From Atractiella rhizophila (lineage: Eukaryota), in assembly GCA_021432655.1 (NCBI GenBank), contig MU271408.1, positions 9,373 to 71,510 on the forward strand: 62,138 bases of DNA, written 5' to 3'. Positions within the stretch are counted from its first letter, which is position 1. The number at the start of each line of letters is the position of its first letter. The notes under the pieces were generated by a model. It ran no database searches, had not been told where the DNA came from, and saw nothing but the letters and a program-made list of their open reading frames with translations. Positions 1-41,000 of the stretch are shown in pieces. Both the position numbers and the translations under genes were made by a program.

Positions 1-1890
1 CTCAGCGAAGGCGATCGCAGAAGCGTGTCGAGAGACGAGGGTGTTGTGTTCCGTCGCGGATTTGCCAGAATTGAGTGCGGTGGGATGGCCTGTTACGCTT
101 AGATGGGATGTCGTCGATGAGAGGAAGAAGATGGCTGAGAATGATGAGGAGAGACAAAAGAGTAGTTTGATGGTGGCGGTTGATACTGGACGGAAGGCGT
201 GTAGACTCGGGAGGAGAATTGCTGATACGATCAAGCAGGTGAGCTTTCTCATTCCGTTGCGGAGGGAGGTAGAGACAGAAACTGGCTCGTTTTACGATCT
301 CCACATTTCTCTACTGGGCATTACGTACCCTCCTGCATTTCTGTCTTCCTTCAACTCTTACTCCTCTTGCCAGCCGAGAATGTTTTTGAGCTTGGCAAAC
401 AAATATACCTGCAGCATTTGTGAATGCAGTTTGAATCACCTCGCTTGAGAAAATTTAGAAAGCTCCTCTTACAAGCAGTATTAACTATAACAAGGTATTG
501 ACACAACATCATTTAGGCTCTTCCGAATGATATTGGTACAGCGGTAGAAGCTGTTGGGCTTTTACGTTCGGCGGCGAGGGAACTACAAGATCAAACAACC
601 ACACGGTCAGAAACCTCTTCGTCATCCTCGAGCCTCGTGCTCGATTCTAGTTCATCATCCATCGAAGATTCAGAATCCCTGGTCTCTCTCTCGCTCTCTC
701 CGCCGCTCAATGCTCCTGTTCGTCAACTCGGGCAGTCTCCCGTGCCAGCATCGAAATGCAAAGCCAGGAGGGCTTCATCAGCTTCATCAGAACCCGATCC
801 CCTCCAAATGCGCATGCGTTGGATATCCCAGATATCAGAATTTTGGCCTTTCGAACACATCGCTAAGACTTATTTCGACACCGAAGCAAGGTCACGCATT
901 CTTTCTTTAGCTTCACAATCTACAGATTTACTTCCAAGCCTTCGCCACCATTCCATCGGTCCCTTCCCAGGACAGGATGTTGCTACGAAGCCGAAAAAGC
1001 AAGGTGTCATTCTCCTCGTTGGTTCTGGACCCGGATCTCCTCTTCTACTGCCAGTCTTCACACATCGATTGCTAACTACCTCTTCATCTTCCACAATCGT
1101 CTTGTCCGATAAACTGGTGCCGAGCGAGATCCAAGAGCTGATCCCTGAAGGCACGGAAGTTGTCATCGCGAAGAAGTTCCCTGGGAACGCGGAAGGCGCT
1201 CAGAGTGAACTGATGGAAATTGCGGTCCGAGAGGCGAAGGAAGGGAAGACCGTGATCAGGTTGAAGCAGGGCGATCCTTACATTTACGGACGAGGCGGAG
1301 AGGAAGTGTTACACTTTCGAAAACATGGAATAGAGACGCGCGTCGTTCCTGGCCTCTCCTCAGCGCTTGCTGGCCCTCTACTTGCTGGTATACCATTGAC
1401 ACAGCGAGGCGTGAGTGAAGGAGTTGTTATCTGCACCGGAGTTGGAAGAGGTGGAAAGGAAGTCAAGATCCCGGGTTATGACAGGGAGAAGACGGTGGTG
1501 ATGCTTATGGGAGTCGCACGGATTGGAGAGGTCGTGAAAGCTATCACGGAAGGAATGGGAGGAAGGTTAGGCGGAAATGCTCGACTTTATCCTCCTCATC
1601 TTCCTATCGCGATCGTGGAGAGGGCAGGCATGAAGGACGCGAGGACAGTCATGAGTACTCTTGCTAATGTCGAAGAAGCGATGAAGGAAGTAGGCCAGAA
1701 GCCACCAGGACTGATCGTTGTCGGTTGGAGCGTTATGGCTCTGGACGGTGAGGGATACCTTGACGTGCTCGATCGGAGTGAGGAGGACGATGTTCCTCTG
1801 GTGACTCGTTGGCTCAACGGTGCGAAGTGGAGGGTCGAGCAGAATGGATTGGCTGCTTGGGAAGCACTTCAACTCGGTGTACCCACCTGA
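1..1890 (+). CDS. MET1: Uroporphyrinogen-III C-methyltransferase (Met1/siroheme synthase-like), 5' end outside window; intron 239-516
   Basis: Tetrapyrrole methylase motifs LVGSGPG, DKLV, RLKQGDPYIYGRGGEE, VVPGLSSA, GIPLTQRG. Upstream exon (AIAEACRETRVLCSVADLPELS...) resembles the siroheme synthase N-terminal region and joins in frame via GTGAGC(239)...TTTAG(516). Confidence 0.9.
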
Positions 1891-2146
1891 CGGCGTTGTA
1901 TTAGCTAAGTTTTTATTGATAGAGCTATGCTTGTGCTTGATGTATTACATGTTTGTTTCTATAAGCTGCAACTGATTACAATAGTTTCGTGTCCTGTTTT
2001 GCATTCCAAAGTATGTGCAATAATTGAGATCGGAGCTCTAATGGATGGAGCTATCGTTTCAGCTGAGGTTACAGACGAATACAACCACATAAATGAAAAA
2101 TAGAACACGCTATACGAACAACCTACCCTTCCCTCGTCTGTATCCG

Positions 2147-3401
2147 TCAAGCGCCCTGACTGCTTTCTAGTTCTCCCTGCTTAGCACATTGTACATCATC
2201 ATCTTGCACAACTCTCAATCCCTCGCCGTCAATCACAAAGTCCCTGCCTCCTGGCCGCACAAAAGGCGAAAAGACGACCTCCATTCTCCTCTTGAGGGTC
2301 CCTTCGCCATCGTTCATCTTCCTATCTGTCCTCGCGAGGATCAACCGAGCGTCACAGTGGTCAGCCCAGATAGGTCCTAGCGCGACGTGCGTGCGTGGTG
2401 TGTAAATGGTTCGACCTGGTAGTTTTCGATGGAAAATGTGAGGTGGAGTGAACATTGAAGGAGAGGGACCTACCGTCAAAATACGGAAGCTGGTGGTTCA
2501 CATGCAAGGATGGAATTTCCTCTTTCCCTCCCGTCCCTGCAACTGAAGGAATGATGATAGGCTGCCCATATATCGGCTTTTCAAATACGTCCGCGACTTG
2601 ATTGACAGTCACCACTGCCAATCCAAACTTTTGTGCCGCGTGGCCCAGCGCCTCTGCTATCCTGCCGAGACACTCTTTTCTCTTCTTCAGTTCTCCCGGC
2701 CCCGTCCCGAATTCCGTTCTCAGCAATGCGCTGAGCGAATCAATGATTAGAAGCCGAGGAGGAGGAGAGAGGGAGGAGAGTATGGAGTGAAGGCGGAAGT
2801 CGAGTAGGTTTTCGAAGACAGAAAGGGTGGGGAGGGCGAGGATGGAGACTCGATCAGTTAGTGTGGTTATGTTGGGAAGAGAAGGGTGGAGTATTGAAGC
2901 CCAATTGGATATTGGTGGTGCACGGGACTCTGTGAAGAGCAGTAGAGAGGAATGATTAGCTTGAGAGGTAGCAATGGTGAGGTGCGCCGCCAACGTTGAC
3001 TTTCCCGACCCACTTTTCCTCCCACTTTCATTCCCATTCCACTTTTAAAGACAAAATGAACCACACACCTTTCTCCAGCGATATCAAGTACAGTTCCGAT
3101 CCTCAATCCACCACCTAGAAGCTCATCCAAAGCCGCATCTCCCGTGCCCAGCCATTCCTCCTCGTCTCCCTTCACTTCTCCTTCCTCAATGAACGGCTTC
3201 GATATAAGTGAAAGACATTCTCTTATCGATTCTACAGGCAGTCCTGCGCGGTGTGCAATCACTGCAGGGGGCGAAAGGAGGAGGGAAGATGCACTTGAGT
3301 ATCCAGCTGTATGCCTATTAGAACGCGTCAAAAAGAACAAGATATTGCTCGCCTCGACGTAAACAGCGCTTTCTGTCAAGTGGAAGGCTATCCAGGGACA
3401 T
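2147..3401 (-). CDS. RAD57: Rad51 paralog, Rad57/XRCC3-like DNA repair protein (4 exons)
   Basis: LGTGDAALDELLGGGL, Walker A GE|SGSGKST reconstituted across an intron, Walker B LLIIDSL, AVVTVNQV, ALGPIWA. ATG at 3401 with a probable GC-AG intron 3307-3352. Confidence 0.8.
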
Positions 3402-3802
3402 CCAGGGTGAAATATAAGAAGTCGCGGTCGTTCCTGAGTCACGTGGCTGACTTATTTGCGGAACCAAAATCATCATCCATATTCATCTAACCAACTGCCT
3501 GTTCACTCGCCTGTCTGCACATTCGCTGTCGACCTTTCTGCAAGTTCCCTAGAGTTACTGCATAGCTACTTTTGCTTTTCTGCTGCTTTGTTTAGTCCGG
3601 CTAGCCCGGAGAGGATTTTCGGCGAAAGGACAAGGAGGACATTCGTCATCGACAAGGATATCTTGGCTCACATTACATTACCTTATTCCGGCCAAGTTAT
3701 ATAAAAGAGTCTCTTTCCTGGTCTCTTCCCTCAAACCGCTTCGCCTAGCCTTATCCAGTATCGTTTTACGAAAGACTTCAGTTCATCAGTATAGATTACA
3801 CG

Positions 3803-5914
3803 ATGCTTTTCAACTTCAACACAATCAGTTCACTTCTCCTCTTCGCATCCTCCTTCGACCTTTTACCCTTTCCACAAGCAAATGCAGCGAAGATATCCAT
3901 GCCTATTTACCGCCCCAGCAGCCGGGAACGGCTCAAGAAGAGGCAGACTGACATGGATGGTTGGATGAACTCTCTCAGACAGGGTGTGGGCGATAAGTAT
4001 GGGAAGGCTCTGGAGAGTGAGCGGAGGATGAGTAAGAGGGAGAGGGAGAGGGAGCGAGTTAGGAGAGGGAAAGGAGCAGATTACCTTTTCAATCAGGGTG
4101 ATACGGTCTATTTTGGACAAGGTGTGTTTTTGGTTCTTTCCTTTTTGGATTCAGGCAAAGTGACGAGGAGAGAGATCCCATGAAAGGGAATGGATTTGTT
4201 CATTACATTTGATTATTTGGTTTATGGTGGCGACAGCAAGGCGTGAATAGGGGTTTGCATTCATCCGGACGTGCACTCAAAGCCGAGTGGGTGTACAGCC
4301 CCTCCTCTATTCTTCTCTATTGAGAAACTTCTTCTACATATCAAGGTATGGATGGAAGCGTCGTCTTTTGCAGTGGATATACGCGATTATAATATCAATT
4401 CGGGACGAACGTTCAAGTCTCACACCTGCAATGAGACATAATTTTGCATTTATTGAAATGCAGAAGAACCAATGATAGGAGTGTCGAACCGTACTAATTT
4501 TGCCTGTACCCAGTATCGCTTGGGACACCTCAGCAGACGTTCTTCGTCGTCCTCGACACAGGTTCATCTGATCTCTGGCTCGCCGGTTCCTCCTGCAACT
4601 CTGGTTGTTCAGGAGTGACCACATTTAACCCTTCCTCAAGCTCGACGTTTAAGAACCTCAACAAGTCATTCAGCATCCGCTATGGTTCTGGATCCGCAAC
4701 CGGCACTTTAGGACAAGATACCGTCTCGCTGGCCAACCAAACGATAACCAATCAAATCTTCGCAGTTGCTGATACCGTTGCTTCAGGAACACTAAACTCA
4801 CCGCTCTCGGGACTGATGGGCCTGGCTTTCCAAACCATTGCGGCCTCAAGAGCTACGCCTCTTGCTCAACAACTCGCGGAGGATGGCGTGCTGGATTCTC
4901 CCGTTGTCGCTTTTGCGTTTACTAGATTCAATGACAACAGTGGGCAGAGGGACTTGACCGAACCTGGAGGGCTCATGACGCTCGGTGGGACGGATCCGAA
5001 CCTCTTTACTGGACAAATCACCCAATATGTGAGTCTTCGATTGCTCTGTAACGAGGGTGCCGATTGATGAATTGGGGTAAAGCCACTTGCGAACCAGGGA
5101 ACTTACTGGTTGATCCCCGTCACTGGCGTCTCGGTTGATGGTACCAGCATCTCGGTCGAGTCCGAAAACGCAGCCATCGATACGTGAGTTCTTCATTCTA
5201 TACCTCATCATCCGGATTGTTTATTCTTTGTCTGTAGAGGAACTTCCCTGATTGCTGGCCCTACTGACGATGTAGCCGCGATCTATGCACAGATTCCAGG
5301 TTCTGCTCCTTACTCTCGTGCTCAAGGCTACTATACTGTCCCCTGTGACTTTACCGGCTCCATAGCATTCCAGTTCGGTGGTTCTTCTACGACTTGGACG
5401 ATTAATGCGGACGACTTCCTCGTCGGTCAGGTCTCTTCGACCAGGTGCGTTGGCGGACTCTTCACTCTGCCCAGCTCTTCAGGAACGCCAGATTGGATTG
5501 TCGGAGACGTGTTTTTGAAGGTTTGTATTTGTCTCTAGCCGTTCGAGAAAACATCTGATATGTGAGCAGAATGTCTATTCCGTTTACGACTATACCGCAA
5601 AGACCGTTGGTTTCGCCGCTCTCAATACCGCGAACGTGCAAGGTTTGGAAAATGATACCGGGTCGCTCAACCAACTGGATCGTCCAACAGCGAACAATGG
5701 TACAGGAGGAGCGACTATCGAAGGTGGAACGGCCAGTTCAGGGCAAACTGATGACAATCCTAACAATGTTGGGACGACGGGAAGTGGGGGAACCGTCGGT
5801 GGAGGAGTTGGAAGCACGCCTACCGGAAGCGATGGACAGGTTCCCAGTTCTGCTTCGAGATTACATCCAGTTGCACTCTCACTTATTTTTCTGCCTCTTC
5901 TCGTTTTGTCGTAG
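3803..5914 (+). CDS. Secreted, probably GPI-anchored pepsin-family (A1) aspartic protease; long first intron 4122-4513
   Basis: Signal peptide, basic propeptide, VVLDTGSSDLW and AAIDT|GTSLI catalytic motifs, flap YGSGS, WIVGDVFLK, Gly/Thr-rich linker and hydrophobic C-terminus. Confidence 0.9.
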
Positions 5915-6112
5915 CCGAATGATCTGATTGACATTGTACATTATTCTCATTTTACGTTGGATGTTTTATTACTGTACTTTTAGGAGCTTGGACTTATACT
6001 CTTACGATGTATATTAAGGACACTTTGGAAATATTCCTGCATGTACATATTCCACAGCCTGAGTCCTAACCCTACCTCGCGTCCTCAAAACGAAGCGAAG
6101 TATTGCACCAGC

Positions 6113-8311
6113 ATGCTGACTAGTATCCTATCCCATCCAGGCCGTCGACATCCGACATCCTATCACCCAAATCCTGTGGAAATGGGAGCGAAGCTCGAAG
6201 CAGGGGTCATGCAGTACTTTGACGGAGTGAAAGAGAGAAGAGGAATGCCATGGCGGGTTCACGTGGATAAGGGAGAGTGGGAGGCGTGGAGCAGGGAAAA
6301 GAAGGGCCAGAGAGCTTATGAGGTGTGTTCCACTTTTGGAGACGGTATGTGGCGATGTTGGTGAGGACTCTGCTGGATGCTGTAGCTCGCTCATGAAACG
6401 AAGCGGTGAAATTGTGAATCATGGCCACTATCATTTGAGATGAAGACAAGTCAAGTCGAGTTTCATTCGTCACATTCCTTACAAGGAGCCGTGTGGGCCT
6501 ATACGTGATATAGGGATAGAGTAGCAAGCAGCTTCTAGTCTTGAGGTCTCCACATTCCTCTCATGGTTTATGACCCATCAAAACAAATATGCGGTAACCA
6601 ACAGGGTCATTCCTACAAGTTTATTGGTTGTTGATGGATGCATAAAAATTCACATCTGTATCACTTTTGTACAAGAAGTAGAGCGCCAGTAAAGTGAGAA
6701 ATTGTCTGTCACCTCCACCGAACATCGCCTGCACATTGCTGTTGCACAAGTTTACACGGTGGGATAGGTCTGGGTTTCGGAAATCATGCTGCAACAAACG
6801 CAAGTTGCAACGGTTATTCCTTACTATAATCGGTGGGAATTCTCTTTTCTTCCGCAACAAAAATTGACACTCCGTCCAGGTGGATGGAAGCGTTTCCCAC
6901 ATTACAAGACCTTGCCAAGTCAGATATAGAAACAGTGAACGGCTTGTGGAAAGGTGTGCTTACACTCCTTTCTGCACAAAGGTTTGATGATATGTAGGTC
7001 TCGGATATTATTCTCGAGCATCAAGATTATTATCAGCTGCTCGAAAGGTCGTCGAAAATTTTGATGGCATTCTCCCCATGGACACAAAGACCTTGGAAAA
7101 AGAAGTCGATGGGATGTGAGATTTCTATCGCTCATGCATTGTTACAAGCTAATTTTGAGCTAAGAGGTCCTTATTCTGCTGGTGCTATTTGTTCCATTGC
7201 CTACAAGCAGAATGTCCCAATGGTCGATGGGAACATAGCCAGGGTCATTAGCCGTGTGCCAGATTCTCTGTGCCGTCTCCTACCTTCCTGACTCTGTTTG
7301 CTTGCAGGCCTATTCGCTATCCACGCTCCACCATCATCATCGTCAACAACTAAAGAAATGTATCGGATCGCAGAAGGCCTTGTTCGAAACTGCGATCGAC
7401 CTGGGGATTGGAACCAAGCCTTGATGGAAATTGGAGCTACCGTCTGCATACCATGTCACTCTGACGGGGAGAAGAAACCGAAGAAAAGGAGGGGGAAAGA
7501 GGTTTCGACCGGCCCACGCTGTAGTGAATGTGTGCTGGCAACGGAATGTCTTGCATTGAATGAAGAGAGGTGGCTGCACGGCGAGGCTGCAGTTGAGGTG
7601 GAAGTTGCTCAAGAAGAAAGGCTGGACATTGCAGAGGGCACGAAGTCTAAGAAACGGAAGCGACTCGCGACTGAAGACATTGAAGACGCCTGCCAGTTGT
7701 GTGTTGAGCTAGAGGAAGGTCAGAAGCCTGGTATTTCTCGTTATCCAATGAAGGTGGAGAAAAAGAAAAAGCGGGTGGAAATGACAAAAGGTCCGCTCAA
7801 CCTATCCTCAACTTCTGTATTGACGGTGCCCCCAGTTTGTGTCCTTGAATGTCGGACGGTAGATCAAGGCTGCCAGTTCCTCATGACGAAGAGGAAAGAG
7901 AAAGGCCTTCTTGCTGGTCTGTGGGAGTTCCCCGCCACAACTCCTATAGCTTCCTCCAAGAATGCAAAAACCAATATCAGCAGATCCACACTCTCAAATC
8001 TTTTGAAGGATTTCATTCTTCCTTCATCCCTCAACCTGTTACTGGATCAGCTTTCTGACGCGGAACGTATTTCTCTCAGTCACGTCCATCACGAATTTTC
8101 CCACATCAGCATGGAGTACGTTCCCGAAAGGATCATCATCTCGTGCGAGGCATTACCAGACCTCCTGCAGCCTGTTGGAAATGGAGAAACCGTTAGGTGG
8201 GTGTCGCGGGAAGACGTAGGCGCACAAAATGTTGGCGTTGCGATGGGTAAAATATGGGATCAAATTGATGCACGAGCTTCTCGAGGGAAGTTAAAAAAGG
8301 TCAAGAAATAA
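6113..8311 (+). CDS. MUTY: A/G-specific adenine DNA glycosylase (MutY/MUTYH); long intron 6323-6767; start codon uncertain (6041 also possible)
   Basis: [69 protein letters not shown], Fe-S cysteines, NUDIX-like [10 protein letters not shown]. Confidence 0.92.
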
Positions 8312-8509
8312 CGGACTCTATTCGTTACAAAGGATTTGATGTGTTGACTTTGGATATAGTAAATTATGGGGTATTCAGAATAAAAAAACGATTGGTGTGG
8401 TGCACGCCTGTCATACAACAAAGATGAACTAGTTCAATGCCAACAAAGGATTGAGAACAACACTTCAAACAATGAAAGGACTCCCTTCCACGAACAATGC
8501 GTGAATGAT

Positions 8510-11352: not shown

Positions 11353-11387
11353 AGAGCTGTAGATGCCTTCAGAGCTGTAGATGCCTT
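11353..11387. repeat. Two-copy 18-bp tandem repeat (AGAGCTGTAGATGCCTT-N)
   Basis: Identical 17-mer at 11353-11369 and 11371-11387. Confidence 0.9.
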
Positions 11388-13512: not shown

Positions 13513-14393
13513 GTTTCAACGTAACTTGTATCAAATCGAATTATAGCACCACAATTGGCTGTGGACGGTGGGTACTGGTGGGTTTCACTGAATTCCAGCA
13601 TTCTTGCGATCTTGGGAAGCATGAAGAGTGGCATGACCGAAACCAGTCATTGACCCTCCCTCAGACCCACCTGTTTCAATGTCAAGGTGACAAATCTTTC
13701 TTTCAACGTCAGACCCTCCCGAGATAGGTAGGCGCTCTTTTTCTGTAAAGGGGAAACGTGGGAAACAGGTTCGAAAGATTTTATTTTCACCCTCATGCAT
13801 CGCGCATCATGATGGATGTTTGGAAAGGGGACAATGAGACGGAAAGATTGTACCCTCAACGCTTGAAGGTCGGAACTATCCTGTGAGCCAAAGTGAAAAA
13901 TGCCGAGAAAGCATTGTTCTGGCTTCTCAAACTTCTTCTGTGCTTGCTCGCAATTAAGTTCAACATCGAGCGGGATGGTGATGGCGTGAACATAGCGCTA
14001 TGAGAGGCATTTGATAGCAAAGCAGCTCTTTATATTGGCCATACGATACTTCCAGGCGTCGCTGGGCTCTACACGTAACGACCTACGATGACCTCTTCAT
14101 CTTCACACACTTTGGGCAATTGGCCATGTTTTGACGGAACGGACCGAAAGTACAGGAACGAACAAGAAAATTTTGGATCGAGGATCGACCGTTTGACAGA
14201 GCTCCTTTCACTTGCTGAGGAGACGAAGGTGCAGATACAAGATAGGCTGAGGAAGGATGGGACTTGGTGGAAGAAAACAGAAGCAGAGGATTGGGGAGGA
14301 TCCAAGAAATCAGAAATGGGCTCTTGGTGTGTCTGGTTTGCTTATCTTGTTGCAAGAAAGGGAGGATGGGATAGAGTTGTCGCTGTTAGATAG
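13513..14393 (+). CDS. Tentative multi-exon hypothetical protein
   Basis: In-frame GT-AG-joined segments (FNVTCIKS...GCG|RPTCFNVKV...RD|RFERFYFHP...) and a Trp-rich terminal ORF 14088-14393. Start and middle junctions unresolved; no family recognised. Confidence 0.3.
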
Positions 14394-15148
14394 CGCAATT
14401 TGTGCAGGGGTATGTCTCTGTGACAGAAGGGTTAGAGAGGCATATACCTTCCATCCAGCTGCTGCCGCATGTGCTCAGCTTTGATTTCTATCATTCTGCT
14501 TCGAATTTAATCAAGCGATTTGAACATCTATGTAACTGCCACATTGTTTCCAAGTTGGAGCAGTAACAGCAAGAGGGAAGGGAGGAGGTTAAGATTGTGA
14601 TTTGGAAGTATGCAGTCTCGTCTGTAACTGTAAAACTGACGATGGCATCAACTTGTTTTATAGCACGTTGTGCATTAAGAAACGATCACGTCTATTGTTC
14701 GCTCATCAAACTACGATAAAGTACCTCTTCATCTTGGACAACCAAGCAGCGCGGGAGGCAGTTAATCGTGCATTTATGTCCTTCTTCTAAATGTCCTCTG
14801 AGTAGAAGGCTGGACAAAAGACGAACTCTTGTTAATAGGCGGTGGACAATAAAGTTTGTCTTCAATATTACGCATGTCGGACAATCCGGTATATCCCTGA
14901 TTTCACTTAGCTGTTCTTTACGTTGCGTGCTGTTGTCCTTCCCTGCGAATTAATGGAGTAAAACAGTACTGCTCGCAAGAGAGGGATGTAAGAACTGTTC
15001 TGTACTCCGTTCCATGTGATTTTGCAACAGAACACATCTGTCTGGGTATTCAATCAGTCACAGACCTGGACGATTCTCTTTTCTCGTAGTGATGACGGAA
15101 CATGTCGCACTTGTTCAATAGCTGGGATACTCATTGTTTGTTGGCTAG

Positions 15149-16218
15149 ATGCATCTCGAACCTCATACAAGCTCCTAACATCCATGGGATGGTCCTCCAA
15201 CTCGGATGAGCTCAATCGTTCCAGAACCTACAAGAGCGGTTTCAAGCGTCGTCCTATCGTCCCCAAAGCTCGGTCAAACGATCCTTCACACGCCAATCTT
15301 GGCCTAGGAGCAGCTCCAGGACAATCGATCACCCATGGTGGCTTGTGGGATACGAGCGGACGGGTGAGGCTGATGGGCTTGATTGAGGGCATGGGCTGGG
15401 TGAGGGGTCAGGGTTTGAGAAGCACGATAAATGGAGAGGAATATGCCATCAAAGAACCTAAGAAGACCGTCCAAGGTGGAGAGTTCGGAAGACTCCTAGA
15501 GCGTCTCAATAGTAAAAAGAGAAAGAAAGAGGATCTAGATAAGGAGGCGGTGGAGTCAGCGGCACCTGTACTGAGTCAAGAGGAGCCAAATTTGGCGAGG
15601 GCAGAGGAAGAATCAGAAGAGCCTCTACGGAAGAAGAGGAAAAAGGAAAAGAAGGAGAAGAAGTCTGGATCCTCGAAGAGGGAAGTTTCTACCGTGAAGG
15701 AGGACGAAGAGAAGAAACCTGAAACCCAGACTGATTCTGTGACCGTCTCCTCCTCGACGATTCCCACACCGCCTGATTCCCACCAACCCTCTCCCGCTCC
15801 TCCCCCTCCCCAGCATCGTCTCGCCATTGCTTCACGATCTCGCAACGTTGCAGCCAAACGACGGGCAGCTCAGGACGCGAACGCGATGCGTGAAATCTTG
15901 GGTCTTCCTCCTCTTCCTGTAGAAACGCAAGGTGGTGCTCGAACGGAAACGGCTGAAGTCAAGGAAGAGCTGGCCGAGAACATCGCTGAAACAGAGGATG
16001 GTGAGAAGAGAACGGAGAAGAGAGGGAAATCTGCCAAATCTGAAAACGCGGGAGTCCAAGTAGAAGAAAGCGTTACGACCGCGTCGGATAAGAAACAGGA
16101 GAAGAGGAAAAAGAAGAGAGAGAAAGAGAATACGGAGGCGAAGATCGGTTCTGCGGTAGACGACACAGAGGAGAGGGTGTCTAAGAAGAAGACAAAACGC
16201 AGATCCGAGACTGCTTAG
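15149..16218 (+). CDS. TMA23: Tma23-like nucleolar G-patch/KKE-rich ribosome biogenesis protein (start uncertain)
   Basis: YKLLTSMGW...GFKRRPIV...LGLGAAPG and WVRGQGLRSTI resemble yeast Tma23 N-terminal motifs; long Lys/Glu-rich tail. Confidence 0.55.
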
Positions 16219-16222
16219 ACTA

Positions 16223-16255
16223 ACTCCTGAGACGAGCACTCCTGAGACAAGCACT
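16223..16255. repeat. 15-bp tandem repeat (ACTCCTGAGAC[G/A]AGC x2) just after a stop codon
   Basis: Units at 16223-16237 and 16238-16252 with one mismatch. Confidence 0.85.
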
Positions 16256-23438: not shown

Positions 23439-25113
23439 ATGGCTACGCCAAATAAAATGAAGTATGTAAACCTTGGAAAATCTGGCTTGAAAGTTTCGAG
23501 GGCAAGTTATATTTGTTTGCTATGCAATACCGCCGTTTATTGAGATTGCTCTTGATGGTGTATTGTAGATCATTTTGGGGACTATGACCTACGGAGGTGA
23601 CGGCAGCGAAGGATGTATGTCTTTCTTCAAGCCACTCTAAACTAGTGAACTCTCTTACGCTCCAAGTCAGGGCAAAAATGGTCTACTACTGTGTTTCTAT
23701 TCTGGCGGAAGAAAAATTGACGTTGATGTGGAAGGGTCCTCCCCGAAGAGACGGGTGTGAAACACATCAAAGAAGCCTGGCGTTTAGGTATCAACACTTT
23801 TGATACTGGTATGTCCTTCCACATTATTTGACGCTGTACTGTGAGTTCAGCGTTACCTAGCTAACGCATACTCGGACGGTCTGTCGGAAATATGTCTTGG
23901 AAAAGCTCTGAAGGAGCTCAACGTCCCTCGAGAAAAAGTTGTCATCATGACCAAGGTGTTCTTTCCCGTCACAGACAATCCTGGGCCATCAATCCACACC
24001 AAGTCGGCTGAAGAACTTGCTGCCGCTGGATACGTCAAGTTCGTATTTCATTCTCCCTCAATCATGTTAACACGGAAAGGTTAACAATACGGCCGGATTG
24101 AATAGTCGTCATGGATTATCAAGGAAGCACATCTTCGATTCCGTACAAGCGTCCCTCAAGAGGCTACAGGTGGACTATATTGATCTCCTGCAGTGTGAGC
24201 CCCTCGCTTCGTGCCATTTAAGATATATAACGAACATGTAGGTCATCGTTTTGACTACGACACTCCGATCGAAGAAACGATGCAGGCTCTTCACGATGTT
24301 GTTCAGAAAGGATGGGTTCGATACATCGGAATGAGTAGCTGTTGGGCTTATCAGGTTCGTCAGTTTTCTCACGGATTATTTGGCCGTGTTTCTAAACGAG
24401 ACACGACAGTTTCATATAATGCAAAACTATGCCAGTGCGCCACTTGGTCCCATTATTCACATAGCACGCACCTAAGACTCATGTAAAGTCAACAACAAAC
24501 TTACACCTTTCATCAGCATGCAGAACCAATATTCTGCGATATACAGAGAGGAAGAGCGAGAGGTTCGATATGTTTCATGCTTTAATAACATTGAACTTTT
24601 TACTGATGTGAGCACAGATGCATCCTACGTTGGAACATTTTGGCGCCGGCTCAGTGACATGGAGCACTCTCGGTAGAGGTCTTCTCACCCGTCCATGGAA
24701 CACAGCGGGCCATCGTACCGGTCAGGATAGTGCGTTCCTCAAATATAGATACAACTGGCACACTAAGACGTATCTGAAGGTTATCTTGCGCAATTCTCGT
24801 CCAAGTCCCAGGCATCGAATGAAGCTATCATCAATGCGTACGTGCTGTTCCCACTCGCCCTGCCTGAAGTTGACACATCGACGTCTCGTTTGATAGAGTT
24901 GAAGCTATTTCCAAAAAACGAGGGAAATCGATGGCAGTCATTGCTCTAGCTTGGTCCCTTTCAAAGAAGGCAGTCAGCGCTCCAATCGTCGGTACGAGCA
25001 AGATCGAGAGCATTCAAGAGTTGTGCGAAGCAGTCGAGGTTGAGCTGACTGCGGAGGAGATCAAGGCAATTGAGGATCCTTACATTCCAAGATGGGTCGA
25101 TGGTCATGCTTAG
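23439..25113 (+). CDS. Aldo-keto reductase (aryl-alcohol dehydrogenase-like), copy 1, about 12 exons, intact
   Basis: [78 protein letters not shown]. Includes a GC-AG first intron and a 10-nt microexon. Confidence 0.92.
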
Positions 25114-26728
25114 AGAATATTTGAAGAATCCTGCTTTGCTCGCATCTGCTACTTGTCACAAATGGTGCTTCTGCAATCCAAGTTGTCCAAGTAAATAAAG
25201 TTCCTGAACTGTCCTGGTCATGTACATTGAACTGGAGAAGCACACGGTTTGTTACCATCCAATTGCGCATCCATAACAACGACACCGACCTCGACACCGT
25301 GACCCCAACGTGAGATCACTTCATTGAGATGCTCGCCCGTGAATTGATAGTTCCCAGCTTTCCTCAGTGTCAGCAACTCGATTACAGCCGACGTCATTGA
25401 GTATGAAAACGGACTTTCTTTTGTGTCATCATCGAAGTAGCGAAAATTGACAACATCACAATGAAATTTTACTCAATCCACTCCAGAATCCACCCAACGC
25501 CTCGGTTCTCATGAGCGATCAAATTGTAATGTCCTTCCCATCGGCTTGGAATCAAACAGGGAGCTTTGGGTTATGAACCGTAACCTACTCTTGTGGAGGA
25601 CTAAGACTCATGTAAAGTCAACAACAAACTTACACCTTTCATCAGCATGCAGAACCAATATTCTGCGATATACAGAGAGGAAGAGCGAGAGGTTCGATAT
25701 GTTTCATGCTTTAATAACATTGAACTTTTTACTGATGTGAGCACAGATGCATCCTACGTTGGAACATTTTGGCGCCGGCTCAGTGACATGGAGCACTCTC
25801 GGTAGAGGTCTTCTCACCCGTCCATGGAACACAGCGGGCCATCGTACCGGTCAGGATAGTGCGTTCCTCAAACATAGATACAACTGGCACACTAAGACGT
25901 ATCTGAAGGTTATCTTGCGCAATTCTCGTCCAAGTCCCAGGCATCGAATGAAGCTATCATCAATGCGTACGTGCTGTTCCCACTCGCCCTGCCTGAAGTT
26001 GACACATCGACGTCTCGTTTGATAGAGTTGAAGCTATTTCCAAAAAACGAGGGAAATCGATGGCAGTCATTGCTCTAGCTTGGTCCCTTTCAAAGAAGGC
26101 AGTCAGCGCCCCAATCGTCGGTACGAGCAAGATCGAGAGCATTCAAGAGTTGTGCGAAGCAGTCGAGGTTGAGCTGACTGCGGAGGAGATCAAGGCAATT
26201 GAGGATCCTTACATTCCAAGATGGGTCGATGGTCATGCTTAGAGAATATTTGAAGAATCCTGCTTTGCTCGCATCTGCTACTTGTCACAAATGGTGCTTC
26301 TGCAATCCAAGTTGTCCAAGTAAATAAAGTTCCTGAACTGTCCTGGTCATGTACATTGAACTGGAGAAGCACACGTTTTGTTACCATCCAATTGCGCATC
26401 CATAACAACGACACCGACCTCGACACCGTGACCCCAACGTGAGATCACTTCATTGAGATGCTCACCCGTGAATCGAGAGTTCCCAGCTTTCCTCAGTGTC
26501 AGCAACTCGATTACAGCCGACGTCATTGAGTATGAAAACGGACTTTCTTTTGTGTCATCATCGAAGTAGCGAAAATTGACAACATCACAATGAAATTTTA
26601 CTCAATCCACTCCAGAATCCACCCAACGCCTCGGTTCTCATGAGCGATCAAATTGTAATGTCCTTCCCATCGGCTTGGAATCAAACAGGGAGCTTTGGGT
26701 TATGAACCGTAACCTACTCTTGTGGAGG
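24472..26728 (+). repeat. Direct tandem duplication, unit 1128 bp (24472-25599 and 25601-26728)
   Basis: Constant offset 1129; six substitutions spotted (24744/25873, 24981/26110, 25247/26376, 25335/26464, 25345/26474, 25348/26477). Confidence 0.95.
25601..26242 (+). pseudogene. Promoterless duplicate of the last four exons of AKR copy 1
   Basis: Second unit of the tandem duplication; starts inside an intron, encodes the same C-terminal peptide ending WVDGHA*. Confidence 0.75.
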
Positions 26729-29962: not shown

Positions 29963-30051
29963 CCTCCACATAAAGCCCATCTCCTCCACAAGTTGCCTTT
30001 CCTCCACACCAGCCGTTTGTGGAGGTTCAACGTTCAACTCGGGTATATAAA
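29963..30051 (+). promoter_or_regulatory. CCTCCACA repeat cluster plus TATA upstream of AKR copy 2
   Basis: CCTCCACA at 29963, 29983, 30001, inverted TGTGGAGG at 30018-30025, TATATAAA at 30044. Confidence 0.6.
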
Positions 30052-30110
30052 GCCTATGTGGGACCTCTTTAGACCTCAATTCGAATCAGCCCTGAAGCAA
30101 CAAATACCAA

Positions 30111-31767: not shown

Positions 31768-32039
31768 AAGCACATCGTACAAGTCGAATTCTTTGTAAAA
31801 TAGTATAAACATAATAATATAATCATCTTCAGTCTCTCTCGCACTCATTACTGTGCCTTTAGGCTCCGAGGTGCATTGAGAGCATCACACGTTGCTTGCT
31901 CAGTCACAATCAATACTAACTCCAAGAAGTATATAACAAGGAGACTATTAAAGACATTACTGCCAACTATTAAGAATCTGTTAGTTCGTAGGTCGGGAAC
32001 TTGCCGCCGAAAGATTGTAACGTCACGAAGCTGCAGGAC

Positions 32040-32262
32040 GTAAAGGAAAAAAACCCCTTGGGTAAAATGAAAAAAAAACCAACAAAACAACCAAAAAAAA
32101 AAAAAAGGAAAACACTCTACTAGTCAAAAATCAATAACGTCCTCAAAAAAAAGAAAAAAAGAAGAAGCAGCGAACAAAAAAAAAAAGAAGAACAAAGAAA
32201 AAAAAGAAACCCAAAACCAAAACCAAACGCCCAAACGCACAGAAACAAAAACAACCAATCAC
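32040..32262. other. A-rich low-complexity tract, probably low-quality sequence
   Basis: Broken poly-A runs interspersed with C/G, replacing the expected stop and 3' UTR of the BSD gene. Confidence 0.6.
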
Positions 32263-33895: not shown

Positions 33896-34042
33896 AATGT
33901 GTCGAATATTCGTTTGTGCTCGTTGCTCGTTTCAGCTTGAGCCATTGATGTCAGCTGATGCCATTGATGCGAGCTAACGACTTACAATAAACGAGACTCT
34001 CGACAATTCCGGTCATTTCCCAACTTTGTCCCAAGCAAAACG

Positions 34043-36595: not shown

Positions 36596-37245
36596 GCGGT
36601 AATCGTTGACGAATCGATTTGCTTTAGACGAACAATTCAGCCTGTTGTACAATGTTAAGTGGAGATGTTCGCATTCGATTTTCTGCTCCAATGCTTCACG
36701 ATCAGTTGCTTCAGTTGCAGGATTCAAGGGTTTGACTTGTCTTTTCTCAATCGCTCTATGCTCGTTCAACTCCCCTCTTGCGCATCTTAGTTTCAAAGGT
36801 TCTTCAGCGCCCGGCGCTCGATATCCATTTCGTTGTTCTGTCCTTGTCCAAAATCTCTCCTTTCTTGATCGCTCACACATACCTCAAACCCATATTATAC
36901 GTTGCAATTGTATCGAACTGAATTCATAATACAGAGAAAGACTCTGGCGCCAATCAGTCAGTCTGCAATTACACATTACACATTTCATGGTGGAGCACCT
37001 ATGGTGAATTTGGCACGTACTACTCTAGTCAGAAGTAGAGCTGAAGAAATACATATGGCGCAAAGTTGGCTATGCTCTCTCATCTCATCACCAAGGGCTA
37101 GATGGCCGGATGCCAAATTCACCTCACAGTAGCATATAACTATACTCGTTAAGGTAAAATCGTAAATACAAGAAGAAAGGCTCGACGTTGCCAAAATCAG
37201 GAGCGTCTTTTGTACATTCTCCGTCAAGAAAGAAAGCTTTTACAG

Positions 37246-37887
37246 TCATTCAACAAGCTTGACTTCCACCTCCTGGTTGCGGTCAGCATGTGAAAGAAGA
37301 AGCACCTCAAAGACGCACAATATTACCCCTCGTCGCTCTGGAATAAGGACAGAACTCATGCGCCTTCTCCACTAACTTCTTCGCCTCTTCCACGCTCAAA
37401 TTCGATCCCTCTAAGCTCGAATAAGGCACTTCGAGCTTCACACCGAGCATGAATCCGGGGATGTTCGTGTCCTTAGGTGTTCCAAGATGGACGGATGCGT
37501 CTACACGAGTTGTAGAAGGAAATTTGGGATTCTTAGGATAGAGGGAACGATACACGGCTCCCATTGCTCCTGCGAAACAGGTGGAGAAGCCTTTCTCCCA
37601 GAAAGAACGAAAACATTATACCTCGCTGCTGCATATTGAACTCATCGAGAAGGAAAGCACGGACCCATGCCAAATAATTCCTCTGGATTCCTTCCGGTGC
37701 CCTTTCCTCCCAAACCAGGGGGCATTTCCATATTTAATGTCAACTCCCCATTCTTCAGTTCGCTCCTTCCTCCGGCCCTTCCGCCGATGGAAGACGCCTC
37801 GGCCACATACTTTGTATTGATGCTTGAAAAGCGCCTTACCGCTTGTTTCGAGATGACCAATGAGGTTCTGAGTTGATTCCTCAACAT
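37246..37887 (-). CDS. ohr: Organic hydroperoxide resistance protein (Ohr/OsmC family) with probable mitochondrial presequence
   Basis: GGRAG, GLGGKGTGRNPEELFGMG|FSTCF (peroxidatic Cys), AHEFCPYSRATRGN (resolving Cys); Arg/Ser-rich, acid-free N-terminus. Confidence 0.9.
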
Positions 37888-38034
37888 TGCGTAAATGTTG
37901 ACTTCGTCGTTCTGATCGACAATAATTTTTAGGAAGTGAAGAATGCGTCAAGTCATTCAACAACCACGAGCAACGCGTTTGCCTTGTCTCTTGCCAGTGC
38001 TCAAACTACCGAAGAGTAGTAGCAGAGCACACGA

Positions 38035-41000
38035 ATGTCCTTAGCAGAGGCGTCTGCGGCGCTCTCGTCCCTTGCTTCATCGTCTACGACACTCGACAGC
38101 GTCATACCCATTCTCCTGCCCTTCTTCCTCTCACGGAGACATACACATTGGTTCTGCCTCTCAGATGTAAAGGACAACGAAAAGGAGACGCTTTGGGACT
38201 CAGCCGTCTTTCTCCTTTGTTTATGGAGGTACAAAGCGAAGGATTTGATTGCTGACTGGGGTGCTAAGCTGGAGCGGTTGCTGGGCGAAGATGGATGCGA
38301 AACGTGCATCAAGCGCTATGTAAGGGCTAGGAATGAGCTGGGTGAGAGGTGAGTCTAATTTCTAGTCGAGACGCATTATGTGCTTGATCGTGGTGGTTGG
38401 ACGATGTCAAAATGACAATGTAGCTGAATGCTGCTGGATCATAGAAAGAACTGGCTTAGTAACTGATACGACTTTGCTCCTGGTGCAGATTTTGTTGTTT
38501 TATAGGCAAGCTATCGCTCAGCGTAAGCTTCATAGCTGCTTTTGGGGTTTCTGTCCTCAGTTTGTATAATGGATGGGCAATTCATTCTTGCTTCATAACG
38601 AGCCTCATCGATAGCCTACGATACGCTGCAGCTAGAAATATCATGGTCCCATTTTTCCCGGCGTATATTGTAGTGCTGCATCTGGGAGACTTGATCAAGT
38701 TTTTGACCGTCTGTGCTTGCGATAGGCACTCCTAAGTACTCGGGAATGCAGAATGGTGTTCTCCTTGTTTCTATGCTATGAAGCTTTGTCACCGTTTCAT
38801 CTGAATCTAGAACACCAATATGCCGTGCTCAAAGATTTGACAGCCTGTTAACATCCTCATAGGTATCTGCGGTTGCGCTATGATCACGCCGCTTTAAAGC
38901 AATTTTATACGGCAGTGGCGAAGAAGGAGCGAACCCCTCTCTTGCAGAAATACACTACTTTCCCTCTTCCGGCGCTCATCCAGCTTCGAATCCTGCACGA
39001 TCTCTCACTCTCTGCCGACCGTCAACTTCTAGACCTCCTCATTCAGTCGCCCCCCGTGACAGCCACCCACCCACCTGAAGGACCACTCCTCCTCCTTGCC
39101 TTCCACGAGTCTGAGGATGTTCGAATGTGGGCTATGAAAAGTATGACGGGGAGGAATGTGGTGGATGTTGGAGAGTGGAAGACGGTGGACCCCCTCTTCA
39201 CTACAGTCCTTGTGAGGCTAGGGAGACTTTACAATGACCTGACGCTGGCAGAAGCGAAGGAAGGAAATTATAACCCGTTTGCAACAGGGGACAGCTTCCC
39301 CTTTTCAGACGACAGGAAGGTATTCTGGGACTCTCTAAACCCAATCCTGCCCCTCTTCAGCAAGCCTGTTCTGCGCCAGTTGCCAAAGAGATTTCGCCAA
39401 TTCATCCTCTCCCATCTAGGCGACAACGAGGATTCATTCGAGGGTATTGTGCGGTGTTCTGGCATCCTCATGGATCAGATGAGCATTGGTTTCTGGGAAG
39501 GTCTTGGGGAGTCCAACGTGGTAACGAAAGGGGAATCGTATCCAGTCGTCGTATTGAACCGACTGCTTTCCAACCCTGTTCTGGAGATGCTTCTCAAAAC
39601 CTCACCAAAAACCAATCCTTTCGACCATTTTCTTATCCAATTCTTGTTCTCTGTCCCCTCTTCCAGAGCTGATTGCCTCCGGTATGCATCCGCCGCTCTC
39701 TTTGGCACTTTCCAAGCTTCATGGATACCATCACATGGAATTGCGTACTGCATTCTATCTGGGGTGAAGCTCTGGAAGCTGGTGAATCAAGAGTGGATCT
39801 CGTCGTCTCAAGCTGTAGCAGTAGGAGAATATCTATCTGTCCTCGAATTACACAGCGATTTCTTGTCTCAAGTAGCTTTCAGAAACGAGAAGAAGAAAGA
39901 GTTCAAGGAGAAGATGCAAAAAGAACGGACGACAGTGGTATTGGATGACGAAGCGGCAAAGGCATGGAGGGAAGTGTCTAAGCAAGTCGCTGGCATTTTA
40001 GGAGTGATCATGCTCGAGCAAGCGGAGAAAGTTCAACGTTTTGTCATATCTCTTTCGAAAGGTATCAATCAGCTCATGAAGTCTTTGGAGGATATCGCGT
40101 CCGCTGGAAGAATGGCACAGAAGACGGGTACAGAACCGCCAAAACACAAGCAGCCAGTACTGACGGTTCCACATCGCCCTGACCTAGGAGCAACGGTTTG
40201 GAAACGTGTCTATAAGGAACTCGAGGCGGAGAAATTTGTGTTGCCCGGTCTCGTTCAGCTCATACCGGTAGTCGCTGCTGCCGCTTTCGTCGGAATCACT
40301 CTGCCGTCGAAACCTCCGGACGAGGTCAAGAATGTGAAAGGGACGATTGCTTGGGCTGGCGCGATGTTGGGAAGCTTTAGGGAGGGTTTTGGAGAGTTAT
40401 TAGATAAGGATCAGACCGGGAGGACGGTTCGGGAGATCCTGTCATTGGGTGGAAGGTCTGGGAAGGGTCTCATTAAGCTCATCTTCTCGCCCGTGGAGGA
40501 CGTGCAGACCAGTGTCACGAATGCTCTTCAGCAGAGCTTTGACGCACAGGATCGATTAGAGCTCTTTCGCGCTCTCTTCAAGTTTGCTCCAGAGGTCACC
40601 CTCGCTGGTATCCATGAAGTCCTGAAAACGTTCGTGGCGACCGCAAAGTCTCTCGTGGAGGCGACCGGCTTTTCTAAACGTCTTGTTCGGTGCCTGAACG
40701 ACGTGGTCGAAGTACTGTGCGATTCAACGAGCTCGCCGAAAGGTTTCTTTCACGACATGGCTTGGAGGAAATCGATGAAAGTGTCCGCGTCGGCAAAGGA
40801 TCTGTGGAGTCTCATGTGTCAGGCCACGACGATCATTTACGAAAGGACACAGCACTGGGCACCGTATTATACCACATCTGAGATGGTGGACTGGATGAGA
40901 GATGTCGTCGCTTTCCAAGTTGTGATGGTGGAGAATATCAGGGCGTTCCAAAGCGTTTCAGCTGATATCGTTATCACCAATTCTCCCGCCAAATCGTCGA

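Follow-up and report, generated by a model that had tools for sequence, protein, structure and literature searches.

Long introns in a 62-kb window of Atractiella rhizophila: a terminal inverted repeat in the MutY intron and no obligate end-to-end pairing

How are unusually long introns accommodated in a genome whose introns are mostly about 50 nt? For the 62,138-nt stretch of Atractiella rhizophila DNA analysed here (the window), an earlier note described four long introns (MET1, aspartic protease, MutY and SEN1), all with complementary ends that would fold them back to about normal size. It suggested that introns above a certain size depend on RNA zipper stems in this fungus, or alternatively that decayed foldback or MITE insertions had lengthened short introns. 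Its introns and three of its complementarities (perfect 9-mers) held up under our analysis, while the SEN1 pairing and the count of long introns did not; as to interpretation, the obligate zipper fails, and the foldback alternative is the better fit to the kind of signal seen.

Long introns against a short-intron background

Introns in the window are predominantly short. Fourteen of the 15 RNA-contig joints listed (of 44) span 45–62 nt, the shortest RNA-confirmed intron in the window being 45 nt, and in 13 hand-picked gene-finder models 90 of 104 introns are at most 80 nt long (median 53). The short class covers 40–76 nt (about 45–70 nt in the earlier note). All four long introns already described are real and correctly placed (Table 1), but a fifth, the longest, had been overlooked in a PinX1-like G-patch gene. 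All five, at 278–822 nt, are longer than regular introns, whose median is 53 nt.

Table 1. Long introns of the window and the inverted repeats within them
Feature	Positions	Strand	Description	Basis
MET1-like (siroheme synthase) long intron	239..516	+	278 nt, GTGAGC...TTTAG	exact gene-finder recovery, Pfam order
MET1 5' arm	241..249	+	GAGCTTTCT, intron positions 3-11	perfect 9-bp complement of 457-465
MET1 3' arm	457..465	+	AGAAAGCTC, end 51 nt 5' of acceptor	complement of 5' arm
Aspartic protease first intron	4122..4513	+	392 nt, GTGTGT...CCCAG	RNA contigs, Pfam
Protease 5' arm	4130..4138	+	TTGGTTCTT, intron positions 9-17	perfect 9-bp complement of 4464-4472
Protease 3' arm	4464..4472	+	AAGAACCAA, end 41 nt 5' of acceptor	complement of 5' arm
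MutY long intron	6323..6767	+	445 nt, GTGTGT...GATAG	homologue continuity, gene finder
MutY 5' arm	6332..6366	+	imperfect inverted repeat, intron positions 10-44; perfect 9-mer GGCGATGTT at 6351-6359	
MutY 3' arm	6712..6751	+	intron positions 390-429; perfect 9-mer AACATCGCC at 6721-6729	
Fifth long intron, PinX1-like G-patch gene	14327..15148	+	822 nt	public model P0002
SEN1 first intron	38349..38862	+	514 nt, GTGAGT...CATAG	public gene model P0001
SEN1 internal inverted repeat	38525..38536	+	perfect 12 nt, partner 38775-38786	

The evidence for these introns differs from gene to gene. For MET1 it consists of the gene finder and Pfam domain order only (NAD_binding_7 ends 5' of the intron, Sirohm_synth_C and TP_methylase lie 3' of it), and none of the 15 RNA joints listed (of 44) falls on this intron. 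For the protease intron, RNA-type contigs from three of four runs (X3, X4 and X6) show one 392-nt GT..AG joint, and the Pfam Asp domain begins directly 3' of it. Separately, part of the MutY intron is retained in a contig of run X3 (insertion reported after 6587), which points to unspliced or genomic sequence in that run and is no proof of an exon.

The exon downstream of the MutY intron begins at E. coli MutY residue 33. In seven of 14 homologues tested (picked from 150 listed), the junction from 6325 to 6768 falls at the same protein residue and ...RAYE runs directly into VWVSE; judged by these homologues, the intron hides no exon. Of the public models of the remaining two genes, P0001 (SEN1) joins residue 105 (38349) to 38858 onward, reading ...NELGER / YLRLRY, and P0002 maps to 14275-14334 and 15142-16215.

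Complementarity between intron ends

The MET1, protease and MutY introns each carry a perfect 9-bp Watson-Crick inverted repeat joining the donor-proximal 40 nt to a segment 38–51 nt before the acceptor. When the first 75 nt were compared with the last 80 nt, the longest perfect complements between the five introns' own ends measured 9, 9, 9, 5 and 7. None of 20 non-cognate end pairs reached 9 (maximum 7), nor did any of 37 pseudo-introns (other gene-finder GT..AG candidates of at least 95 nt), four of which reached 8. The probability of at least 9 was 0.019–0.026 in native window segments (~17,600 per length) and 0.010–0.029 in shuffles, or 0.037–0.055 in a set of 400 shuffles, so that a 9-mer is expected by chance in about 2–4% of introns. 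The nominal odds of finding three in five, ~1e-4 to 6e-4 (arithmetic from the native-segment and 400-shuffle rates), are optimistic, because the statistic was picked after the repeats had been seen and the earlier note had singled out the window for complementarity. The signal is gone once G·U pairs are allowed (p 0.14–0.52), and the most stable contiguous helix in the five introns gives p 0.096, 0.10, 0.07, 0.35 and 0.96 (Fisher 0.08). The 9-mer helices, rich in A/U, are weak (-9.8 to -13.2 kcal/mol), and the three arm pairs have no common sequence.

The MutY intron has a genuine inverted repeat at its ends, imperfect and ~35–45 nt long; 9 nt separate its 5' arm from the donor, and its 3' arm ends 2 nt 5' of a putative branch motif, TTTAC. 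Its arms form 30 Watson-Crick pairs over 34 aligned positions (p 0.0055, DNA local alignment), and none of the four mismatches is a G·U wobble. The end duplex has an energy of -56.8 kcal/mol, compared with -33.4±5.8 kcal/mol in shuffles (RNAduplex p 0.003 and 0.004) and -47.0 kcal/mol in antisense. The predicted probability of the 9-bp core helix is 0.889 for the intron alone and 0.888 with exon flanks, and the intron contains no other 9-mer inverted repeat. Neither the donor-to-branch graph distance (p 0.17–0.30) nor the minimum free energy (MFE; z -0.39) departs from shuffles. By RNA-folding measures MutY alone among the five long introns is predicted to pair end to end beyond chance, and it is the only solid candidate for experiments.

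MET1 and the protease exceed chance only by the perfect-Watson-Crick-run statistic (p 0.011–0.023 in 2000 shuffles and p 0.0125–0.029 in shuffles, respectively), not by folding energy. Their end duplexes do not go beyond shuffles (RNAduplex p 0.71 and 0.26), nor do their donor-to-branch graph distances (p 0.86–0.94 and 0.07–0.18), and arm similarity outside the 9-mer is not significant (p 0.18 and 0.08, DNA local alignment). The MET1 duplex is weaker in sense (-25.0) than in antisense (-31.5), and its MFE is that of shuffles (z 0.03). Its 5' arm covers the donor side from +3 to +11, overlapping donor positions +3 to +6, and the predicted helix probability falls from 0.965 in the isolated intron to 0.0 once 30-nt exon flanks are included. 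In the protease, the 9-mer is the sole one in the whole intron, yet its predicted helix probability is 0.016 for the intron alone and 0.278 with flanks, compared with a mean of 0.57 for shuffled interiors; the helix appears to be out-competed in the native sequence. The overall folding energy of the protease intron is below that of shuffles (MFE z -2.31, p 0.017).

The two longest introns show no end pairing above shuffles. In SEN1 the longest end complement is 6–8 nt (p 0.10–0.49; 6–7-mers near the ends, p 0.22–0.49), the end duplex gives p 0.40–0.59 (RNAduplex 0.59), the graph distance p 0.44–0.72 and the MFE z 0.28. Inverted-repeat pairs of 8 and 9 nt are commoner in this intron than in shuffles (p 0.004 and 0.009); its perfect 12-nt repeat sits 177 nt from the donor, so the intron ends are not joined by it. 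In the 822-nt intron the longest end complement is 5 (p 0.985, 75/80-nt end windows), with duplex p 0.10–0.15 (RNAduplex 0.10), graph distance p 0.16–0.32 and MFE z -1.35. The claim that all four introns first described have complementary ends is borne out, as perfect 9-mers, in MET1, the protease and MutY, and fails in SEN1, which is at chance. End pairing does not hold as a rule among these long introns.

Inserted repeats, chance or zipper stems

From the introns, repeats and statistics described above we infer, with a probability of about 0.45 for the joint reading, that these are ordinary spliceosomal introns, at least three of them first introns, at the long end of the length distribution in a genome of short introns, and that the arms are DNA-level inverted repeats left behind by inserted foldback, MITE-like or introner-like DNA. 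The inserted DNA would have lengthened introns of normal size or, in MutY, may make up the whole intron; this would explain the near-normal length outside the arms. We favour insertion because the signal does not survive scoring of G·U pairs or helix energy, and also because the MET1 arm covers the donor, the protease helix seems to be out-competed and the MutY mismatches include no G·U. In the pre-mRNA the MutY arms would pair and bring the donor near the branch site, like a yeast zipper stem, and this could aid splicing as a by-product. Precedents among fungal introns include terminal inverted repeats without target-site duplication (in the part of PMC8469720 drawn on here) and long, structured introner-like elements (likewise in part of PMC3609843).

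Although the decayed-foldback alternative of the earlier note is the better fit to perfect Watson-Crick runs, copies and significant duplications are wanting. No second copy of the intron interiors or arms occurs in the 62-kb window (best match 26 nt, 88%, E 0.002), and a metagenome search returned three distant protease relatives and nothing else. The best candidates for target-site duplications lie 2–8 nt off the arms and none is significant: GTGT in the protease (p ~0.10 in a fairer test), none or GGTG in MutY and, flanking the MET1 arms, a CAAGCAG repeat (23 of 3000 random pairs reach at least 7; p ~0.10 in a fairer test). Comparing the donor junction with the last 80 nt in the five introns gave p 0.10, 0.10, 1.0, 0.98 and 0.54. 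Excising an insertion at the putative duplications would leave ancestral introns of ~35–40 nt, shorter than the shortest RNA-confirmed one.

Chance is a serious rival to insertion, if on balance an unlikely one: with MutY perhaps excepted, the 9-mers would be coincidences from scanning many windows and the long introns simply long. First introns are often long. Comparison with shuffled controls, which the earlier note had proposed, singles out MutY (duplex p 0.003) and leaves the other four introns at chance by folding, whether by RNAduplex, by graph distance or, over all five, by contiguous-helix energy; shuffled sequences likewise fold with their ends 26–31 steps apart. Six or more statistics were tried, and for MET1 and the protease only the perfect-run one was significant, in a window chosen for complementarity itself. 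Against coincidence stand the perfect 9-mers in three of five introns over a 2–4% background each, the failure of any non-cognate pair or pseudo-intron to reach 9, and the MutY repeat, significant by itself in duplex, DNA alignment and helix probability.

That stems are obligatory beyond a size limit is refuted within this sample of five, since the two longest introns lack end pairing; such pairing is not required for splicing these long introns. Selected zipper stems, as an enrichment that restores long introns to a normal donor-branch distance, seem doubtful, less probable than chance. In MET1, the protease and MutY the donor is 2, 8 and 28 nt away from the arms, and the putative branch A follows them by 24–35 nt, giving donor-to-branch linkers of 37, 32 and 52 nt against 30–45 nt in normal introns here (all with motif-guessed branch points). 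As had been proposed, removing the looped-out part leaves a near-normal 53 (MET1), 49 (protease) and 66 nt (MutY), but randomly placed arms in the 75/80-nt end windows would leave a mean near 68 nt (estimate), so these lengths are uninformative. The stability of the MutY stem, greater in sense than in antisense, and the established zippers of S. cerevisiae (PMC12350175, in part) speak for selection. Yet the proposed antisense comparison revealed no consistent sense advantage, MET1 going the other way; the MET1 arm would sequester the donor, and with exon flanks included its helix disappears; the protease helix falls below its shuffled-interior mean; and the 9-mers are weak, their signal vanishing once G·U or energy is scored.

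A combined possibility is more speculative still: long introns would arise mainly by foldback DNA insertion, and a spliceosome tuned to ~50 nt would tolerate only insertions that pair end to end. Inverted repeats near the intron ends would then mark how long introns arose and also explain why splicing persists, and they would be strongly enriched genome-wide in introns >150 nt, the 822-nt and SEN1 introns being exceptions that have other aids or splice poorly. Finally, it is very improbable, and close to refuted, that the long introns are several short ones with unrecognised small exons or host a structured ncRNA such as a snoRNA, given the one 392-nt protease joint in three runs, the continuity of MutY homologues, the single long introns of the SEN1 and G-patch models, and zero Rfam matches in the whole window at gathering thresholds and in all five introns at E<=1 (no snoRNA or other curated family).

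Should the excess of inverted repeats hold genome-wide, it would extend zipper pairing from budding yeast to an intron-rich, short-intron basidiomycete, extend inverted-repeat, insertion-derived introns from a few ascomycetes and algae to a basidiomycete, and link the origin of long introns to their staying spliceable.

Comparison with known systems

In the part of Rangan et al. (2025; PMC12350175) used here, probing of 88 S. cerevisiae introns gave high-confidence zipper stems in 32; throughout the genus such stems are enriched relative to shuffled sequences, and their sequence is little conserved. As in RPS17B and other yeast zippers, donor-proximal and branch-proximal segments pair here and the interior is looped out. 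However, the yeast stems were defined by in-vivo probing and show an enrichment in folding energy relative to shuffles, whereas the pairing here is predicted and one of five introns passes the energy test, MutY alone being more stable than shuffles (p 0.003). The 9-bp helices of MET1, the protease and MutY match the published zipper helix, and SEN1 and the 822-nt intron have none comparable. The same source sets the stem at least 10 nt from the donor, with linkers of 42–85 nt, limits modelled on the yeast spliceosome. With motif-guessed branch points, the MutY core (28 + 24 = 52) falls inside this range and MET1 (2 + 35 = 37) and the protease (8 + 24 = 32) outside, and the MET1 (2 nt) and protease (8 nt) stems are too close to the donor.

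Like MITE or foldback insertions, the MET1, protease and MutY introns have short inverted repeats around a non-coding interior of 200–360 nt and a normal-size remainder outside; unlike them, they show no significant target-site duplications, no family in the window and no terminal sequence common to the three. As terminal repeats, the MutY arms are significant (30/34 paired, p 0.0055), whereas the extended arms of MET1 and the protease are not (p 0.18 and 0.08).

Introners and introner-like elements, as treated in the portions of Collemare et al. (2013; PMC3609843) and Gozashti et al. (2022; PMC9860276) consulted, are longer than regular introns, are thought to decay into ordinary ones, and have a stable predicted structure or, in 72 of 177 families, terminal inverted repeats. 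In those portions of the latter survey, Pezizomycotina are the sole non-aquatic group with introners; searched by name, the paper yields neither Atractiella nor Pucciniomycotina. Many near-identical copies are the introner hallmark, compared with no copy within the 62-kb window, and the low folding energy of introners recurs in the protease only (z -2.31; the other four between -1.35 and 0.28).

A close parallel to MutY is found in the internally symmetrical sister (stw)introns of Hypoxylaceae, whose terminal inverted repeats measure 45–55 nt and are not flanked by duplications (Fekete et al., 2021; PMC8469720, in part). Those form families of highly similar copies in Ascomycota, whereas the MutY intron has no copy in the window and its host is a basidiomycete (Pucciniomycotina). 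As in those introns, the MutY intron, of canonical U2 type, has an imperfect repeat of ~35–45 nt that extends nearly to the splice sites and is free of target-site duplication.

Short and long introns of the window

The host is a root-associated basidiomycete of the Pucciniomycotina, and the window, 62 kb of one genome on which all of our results are based, has 48% G+C and many short introns. The earlier note had put nearly all of these at about 45–70 nt, and this holds: 14 of the 15 joints listed, of 44 in RNA-type contigs, were of 45–62 nt, and among 104 introns from 13 gene-finder models picked by hand, 90 were ≤ 80 nt (median 53, range 40–76). The remaining introns of > 150 nt in these models were artefacts bridging adjacent genes; the gene finder recovers RNA-confirmed introns but joins adjacent genes via false long introns, which served as negative controls only.

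The four long introns listed in the note are real. For the protease intron (4122–4513), RNA-type contigs of three out of four runs (X3, X4 and X6) skipped exactly 392 nt with GT..AG ends, and the Pfam aspartyl-protease domain begins in the exon directly 3′ of it. For the MutY intron (6323–6767), we aligned 14 homologues with extended N-termini, hand-picked among the 150 that a representative protein search listed: in seven an upstream match ended ...RAYE(V) at 6325, with the downstream match resuming from 6768 at the same protein residue, two gave overlapping but consistent alignments, and the full upstream match was absent in five. These alignments across the junction revealed no hidden exon, and the exon 3′ of the intron begins at E. 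coli MutY residue 33. Against the PDB the upstream MutY exon gave chance HMG matches only, and the large MutY exon as query returned no homologous proteins of 186–594 residues. The SEN1 intron is supported by the public model P0001 (1613 aa), which places residues 1–105 at 38035–38349 and those from 104 on at 38858 and beyond. Support for the MET1 intron is indirect: 239–516 was recovered exactly by our custom splice-aware gene finder, and its flanking exons encode the end of NAD_binding_7, then Sirohm_synth_C and TP_methylase, the Pfam order expected of siroheme synthase.

The list was, however, incomplete, as a fifth long intron of 822 nt had been overlooked in a gene with a G-patch-like N-terminus, which presumably resembles PinX1. 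The public model of this gene (P0002, 379 aa) maps to 14275–14334 and 15142–16215. Being absent from the list, this intron serves as a small out-of-sample test. At least three of the long introns (protease, SEN1 and the 822-nt intron) are first introns; that of MutY is, by our reading, the second of its gene, and the start of the MET1 gene falls outside the window.

Two further features of the window concern gene structure. P0001 ends near 43532, and AAA_12, the C-terminal domain of the helicase, is encoded further on (ORF 43432–44196). The 3′ end of this public model may be missing or wrongly spliced (region 43383–44196). Within an aldo-keto reductase gene, or past its end, at least 300 nt are repeated exactly and in direct orientation (24472–24771 and 25601–25900, spaced by 1129 nt), and ORFs 24874–25110 and 26003–26239 have identical Pfam matches; the cause is a tandem duplication of very recent date or else an artefact of the assembly.

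Complementarity between the intron ends

Complementarity had been claimed for the ends of all four introns. Short perfect inverted repeats are indeed present in MET1, protease and MutY, where the longest end-to-end complement is exactly 9 bp each, but there is none of this length in SEN1, nor in the 822-nt intron. The MET1 and MutY pairs came from an inverted-repeat listing, and the protease pair was added by scoring the longest perfect end-to-end Watson–Crick complement.

Features of the long introns; positions of the 9-mers are counted within their introns
Feature	Position	Strand	Description
822-nt intron	14327–15148	+	donor GTGTGT at 14327, acceptor CTAG ending 15148 (DNA reading); longest in window
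G-patch gene exon 1	14258–14326	+	69-nt first coding exon, read from DNA; gene spans 14258–16215
MET1 9-mer	3–11 with 219–227	+	GAGCTTTCT, perfect Watson–Crick; 2+51 nt outside stem
Protease 9-mer	9–17 with 343–351	+	TTGGTTCTT, perfect Watson–Crick; 8+41 nt outside stem
MutY 9-mer	29–37 with 399–407	+	GGCGATGTT, perfect Watson–Crick; 28+38 nt outside stem

Against 2000 shuffles a 9-mer has p 0.010–0.029 per intron, varying with the end windows chosen (p 0.037–0.055 with 400 shuffles and 100-nt windows), and in the native background, for which ~17 600 segments of each length were taken from the two strands of the window, 1.9–2.6% reach 9. The longest complements between an intron's own ends were 9, 9, 9, 5 and 7 in the five introns, and non-cognate pairings of ends (20 in all) did not exceed 7. 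Direct repeats shared by the two ends measured 5–7. Among 41 gene-finder GT..AG ‘introns’ of ≥ 95 nt, the 9-mer occurred only in MET1, protease and MutY, and the 37 GT..AG candidates other than the claimed introns, most of them false, reached 8 in four cases and 9 in none. In protease and MutY the end-to-end pair is the sole 9-mer inverted repeat of the entire intron.

The duplex test singles out MutY. When the best RNAduplex between the 80 nt past the donor and the 100 nt before the branch motif was compared with 1000 shuffles, MutY reached −56.8 kcal/mol against −33.4 ± 5.8 (p 0.003; p 0.004 with 50/60-nt windows), and the others did not exceed shuffles (MET1 p 0.71, protease 0.26, SEN1 0.59, 822-nt intron 0.10). 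At the DNA level, aligning the first 75 nt locally to the reverse-complemented last 80 nt gave the same picture, with 30 Watson–Crick pairs among 34 aligned positions in MutY (p 0.0055), and p 0.08, 0.18 and 0.16 for protease, MET1 and SEN1 respectively. Thus pairing of the ends beyond shuffled controls stands for MutY by both duplex and alignment, but not, by energy, for MET1, protease, SEN1 or the 822-nt intron. The sense strand had no consistent advantage over the antisense in the four claimed introns (MET1 −25.0/−31.5, protease −35.3/−29.7, MutY −56.8/−47.0, SEN1 −32.4/−30.2), and the minimum free energy of the whole intron was unusually low for protease only (z −2.3).

We also folded each intron with the donor and the branch-to-acceptor segment held unpaired, sampling the donor-to-branch step distance from the ensemble against 36–120 dinucleotide shuffles of the interior; unconstrained folds were replaced by these because they paired the splice sites themselves, as in a 4-bp closure in SEN1. 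No intron brought donor and branch significantly closer than shuffles did (MET1 p 0.86–0.94, protease 0.07–0.18, MutY 0.17–0.30, SEN1 0.44–0.72, 822-nt intron 0.16–0.32). Graph distance is a weak measure here: since shuffled introns likewise reach 26–31 steps, a short fold-back distance holds for any sequence of such size.

The SEN1 intron carries a perfect 12-nt inverted repeat far from both ends (38525–38536 and 38775–38786, AAGCTTCATAGC / GCTATGAAGCTT), and has more 8-mer and 9-mer inverted repeats than its shuffled versions (p 0.004 and 0.009 respectively).

Origin of the end repeats

We tentatively favour, with a probability of roughly 0.45, the reading that the end repeats are inverted repeats derived from insertions and that RNA pairing is a by-product of them. 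A DNA-level inverted duplication, such as the ends of an insertion of foldback or TIR-bearing type, would leave as its trace a perfect Watson–Crick run, indifferent to G+C and to wobble pairs; such an origin would also explain, without selection, why about one normal intron length lies outside the arms. The MutY intron carries a genuine, though imperfect, terminal inverted repeat, which starts 9 nt past the donor and stops 2 nt short of the putative branch motif. The foldback or MITE alternative raised in the earlier note is preferred on account of the perfect runs, but several results count against it: the window holds no second copy of any intron sequence, the arms of MET1, protease and MutY have no sequence in common, target-site duplications are not significant (p ~0.10 each for MET1 and protease in the fairer junction test), the ancestral introns implied, of 35–40 nt, fall under any confirmed intron in the window, and minimum free energies, protease aside, are ordinary. 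What defines introners and MITEs is their copy number, and the search for copies covered this 62-kb window.

At the MET1 junction, the 7-mer CAAGCAG occurs at 232–238, at the exon end directly before the donor, and again at 472–478, 6 nt past the 3′ arm; repeats of this type reached at least 7 in just 23 of 3000 random pairs. AGGTGTGT at the protease donor recurs as AGGAGTGT, 4 nt past the 3′ arm. The two pairs resemble decayed target-site duplications with the old donor included, but neither is significant in the fairer test. The sole intron-to-window match with E < 0.1 joins 6539–6564 (MutY intron positions 217–242) to 54825–54850 (26 nt, 88% identity, E 0.002). A contig of run X3 (depth ~8) reads through the MutY intron with a 5-nt insertion, TATGC, after 6587, which points to unspliced RNA or close-relative DNA in public data that could give variants of the stem arms. 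One metagenome scan with protease exon 2 found three related loci (51–59% identity), none with an intron at the 4122–4513 position: L001 is uninterrupted there, and the introns of L002 and L003 lie at other positions. These loci are too distant, and may be paralogues, and so cannot date the protease intron.

That the three 9-mers arose by chance is a possibility to which we give less weight. At 2–4% each, a 9-mer in at least three of five introns has nominal odds of ~1e-4 to 6e-4 by our arithmetic. These odds are optimistic, because the statistic was chosen post hoc, at least six statistics were tried, and the window had been picked for complementarity. The MET1 and protease 9-mers are odd statistically and marginal structurally.

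It is unlikely that the 9-mers are RNA zipper stems under selection, that is, stems pairing donor-proximal with branch-proximal segments, as known from S. cerevisiae (PMC12350175). First, the signal is gone once G·U pairs count (p 0.14–0.52 for MET1, protease and MutY) and under a score based on the most stable contiguous helix (p 0.096, 0.10, 0.07, 0.35 and 0.96 in the five introns; Fisher 0.08 over all five, 0.07 over the claimed four). Second, two of the three helices are A/U-rich and weak (energies of all three −11.7, −9.8 and −13.2 kcal/mol). The MET1 arm overlies donor positions +3 to +11, and its helix has a probability of 0.965 in the intron alone but 0.0 with 30 nt of exon per side; the protease helix has a probability of 0.016 or 0.278, below the mean of 0.57 with shuffled interiors, so that the native sequence competes with it. 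The MutY core helix is the sole robust one of the three (0.89 with and without exon flanks), and by these models the MutY repeat should act like a zipper stem in RNA. As the fungus splices 45-nt introns, its own limits for such stems may be shorter than those published for yeast. Finally, pairing is absent from the two longest introns, SEN1 (514 nt) and the 822-nt intron, which excludes it as a requirement. The earlier observation on end complementarity is partly confirmed, and the rule proposed from it, that long introns need zipper stems, is unsupported.

Ranked by energy, a different contiguous helix, CAGGCAAAGT with ATTTTGCCTG (4152–4161 and 4497–4506), is the most stable one of the protease intron. 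Its 3′ arm occupies the stretch from the putative branch motif to the acceptor, covering the last two bases of this motif, and the helix, if formed, would hide the 3′ region rather than zip the donor to the branch.

That the long introns are really several short ones with hidden exons, or host non-coding RNA, is very improbable, with hidden exons excluded by RNA joints for protease, by homologues for MutY and by the public models for SEN1 and the G-patch gene, and Rfam yielding no match to the five introns even with the threshold at E ≤ 1; any other explanation we regard as scarcely worth considering.

Relation to known introns

Our literature search found nothing on Atractiella intron structure or on obligate stems in short-intron fungi, and among the matches listed, papers naming Atractiella rhizophila concerned, by title, ecology or taxonomy. 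Pairing stems and inverted-repeat introns are both already known, so that the novelty here is at best that of a new lineage. The MutY repeat is like the long, structured introner-like elements (PMC3609843). It is also like the symmetrical introns of the Hypoxylaceae, which are described as having terminal inverted repeats of 45–55 nt without flanking duplications (PMC8469720).
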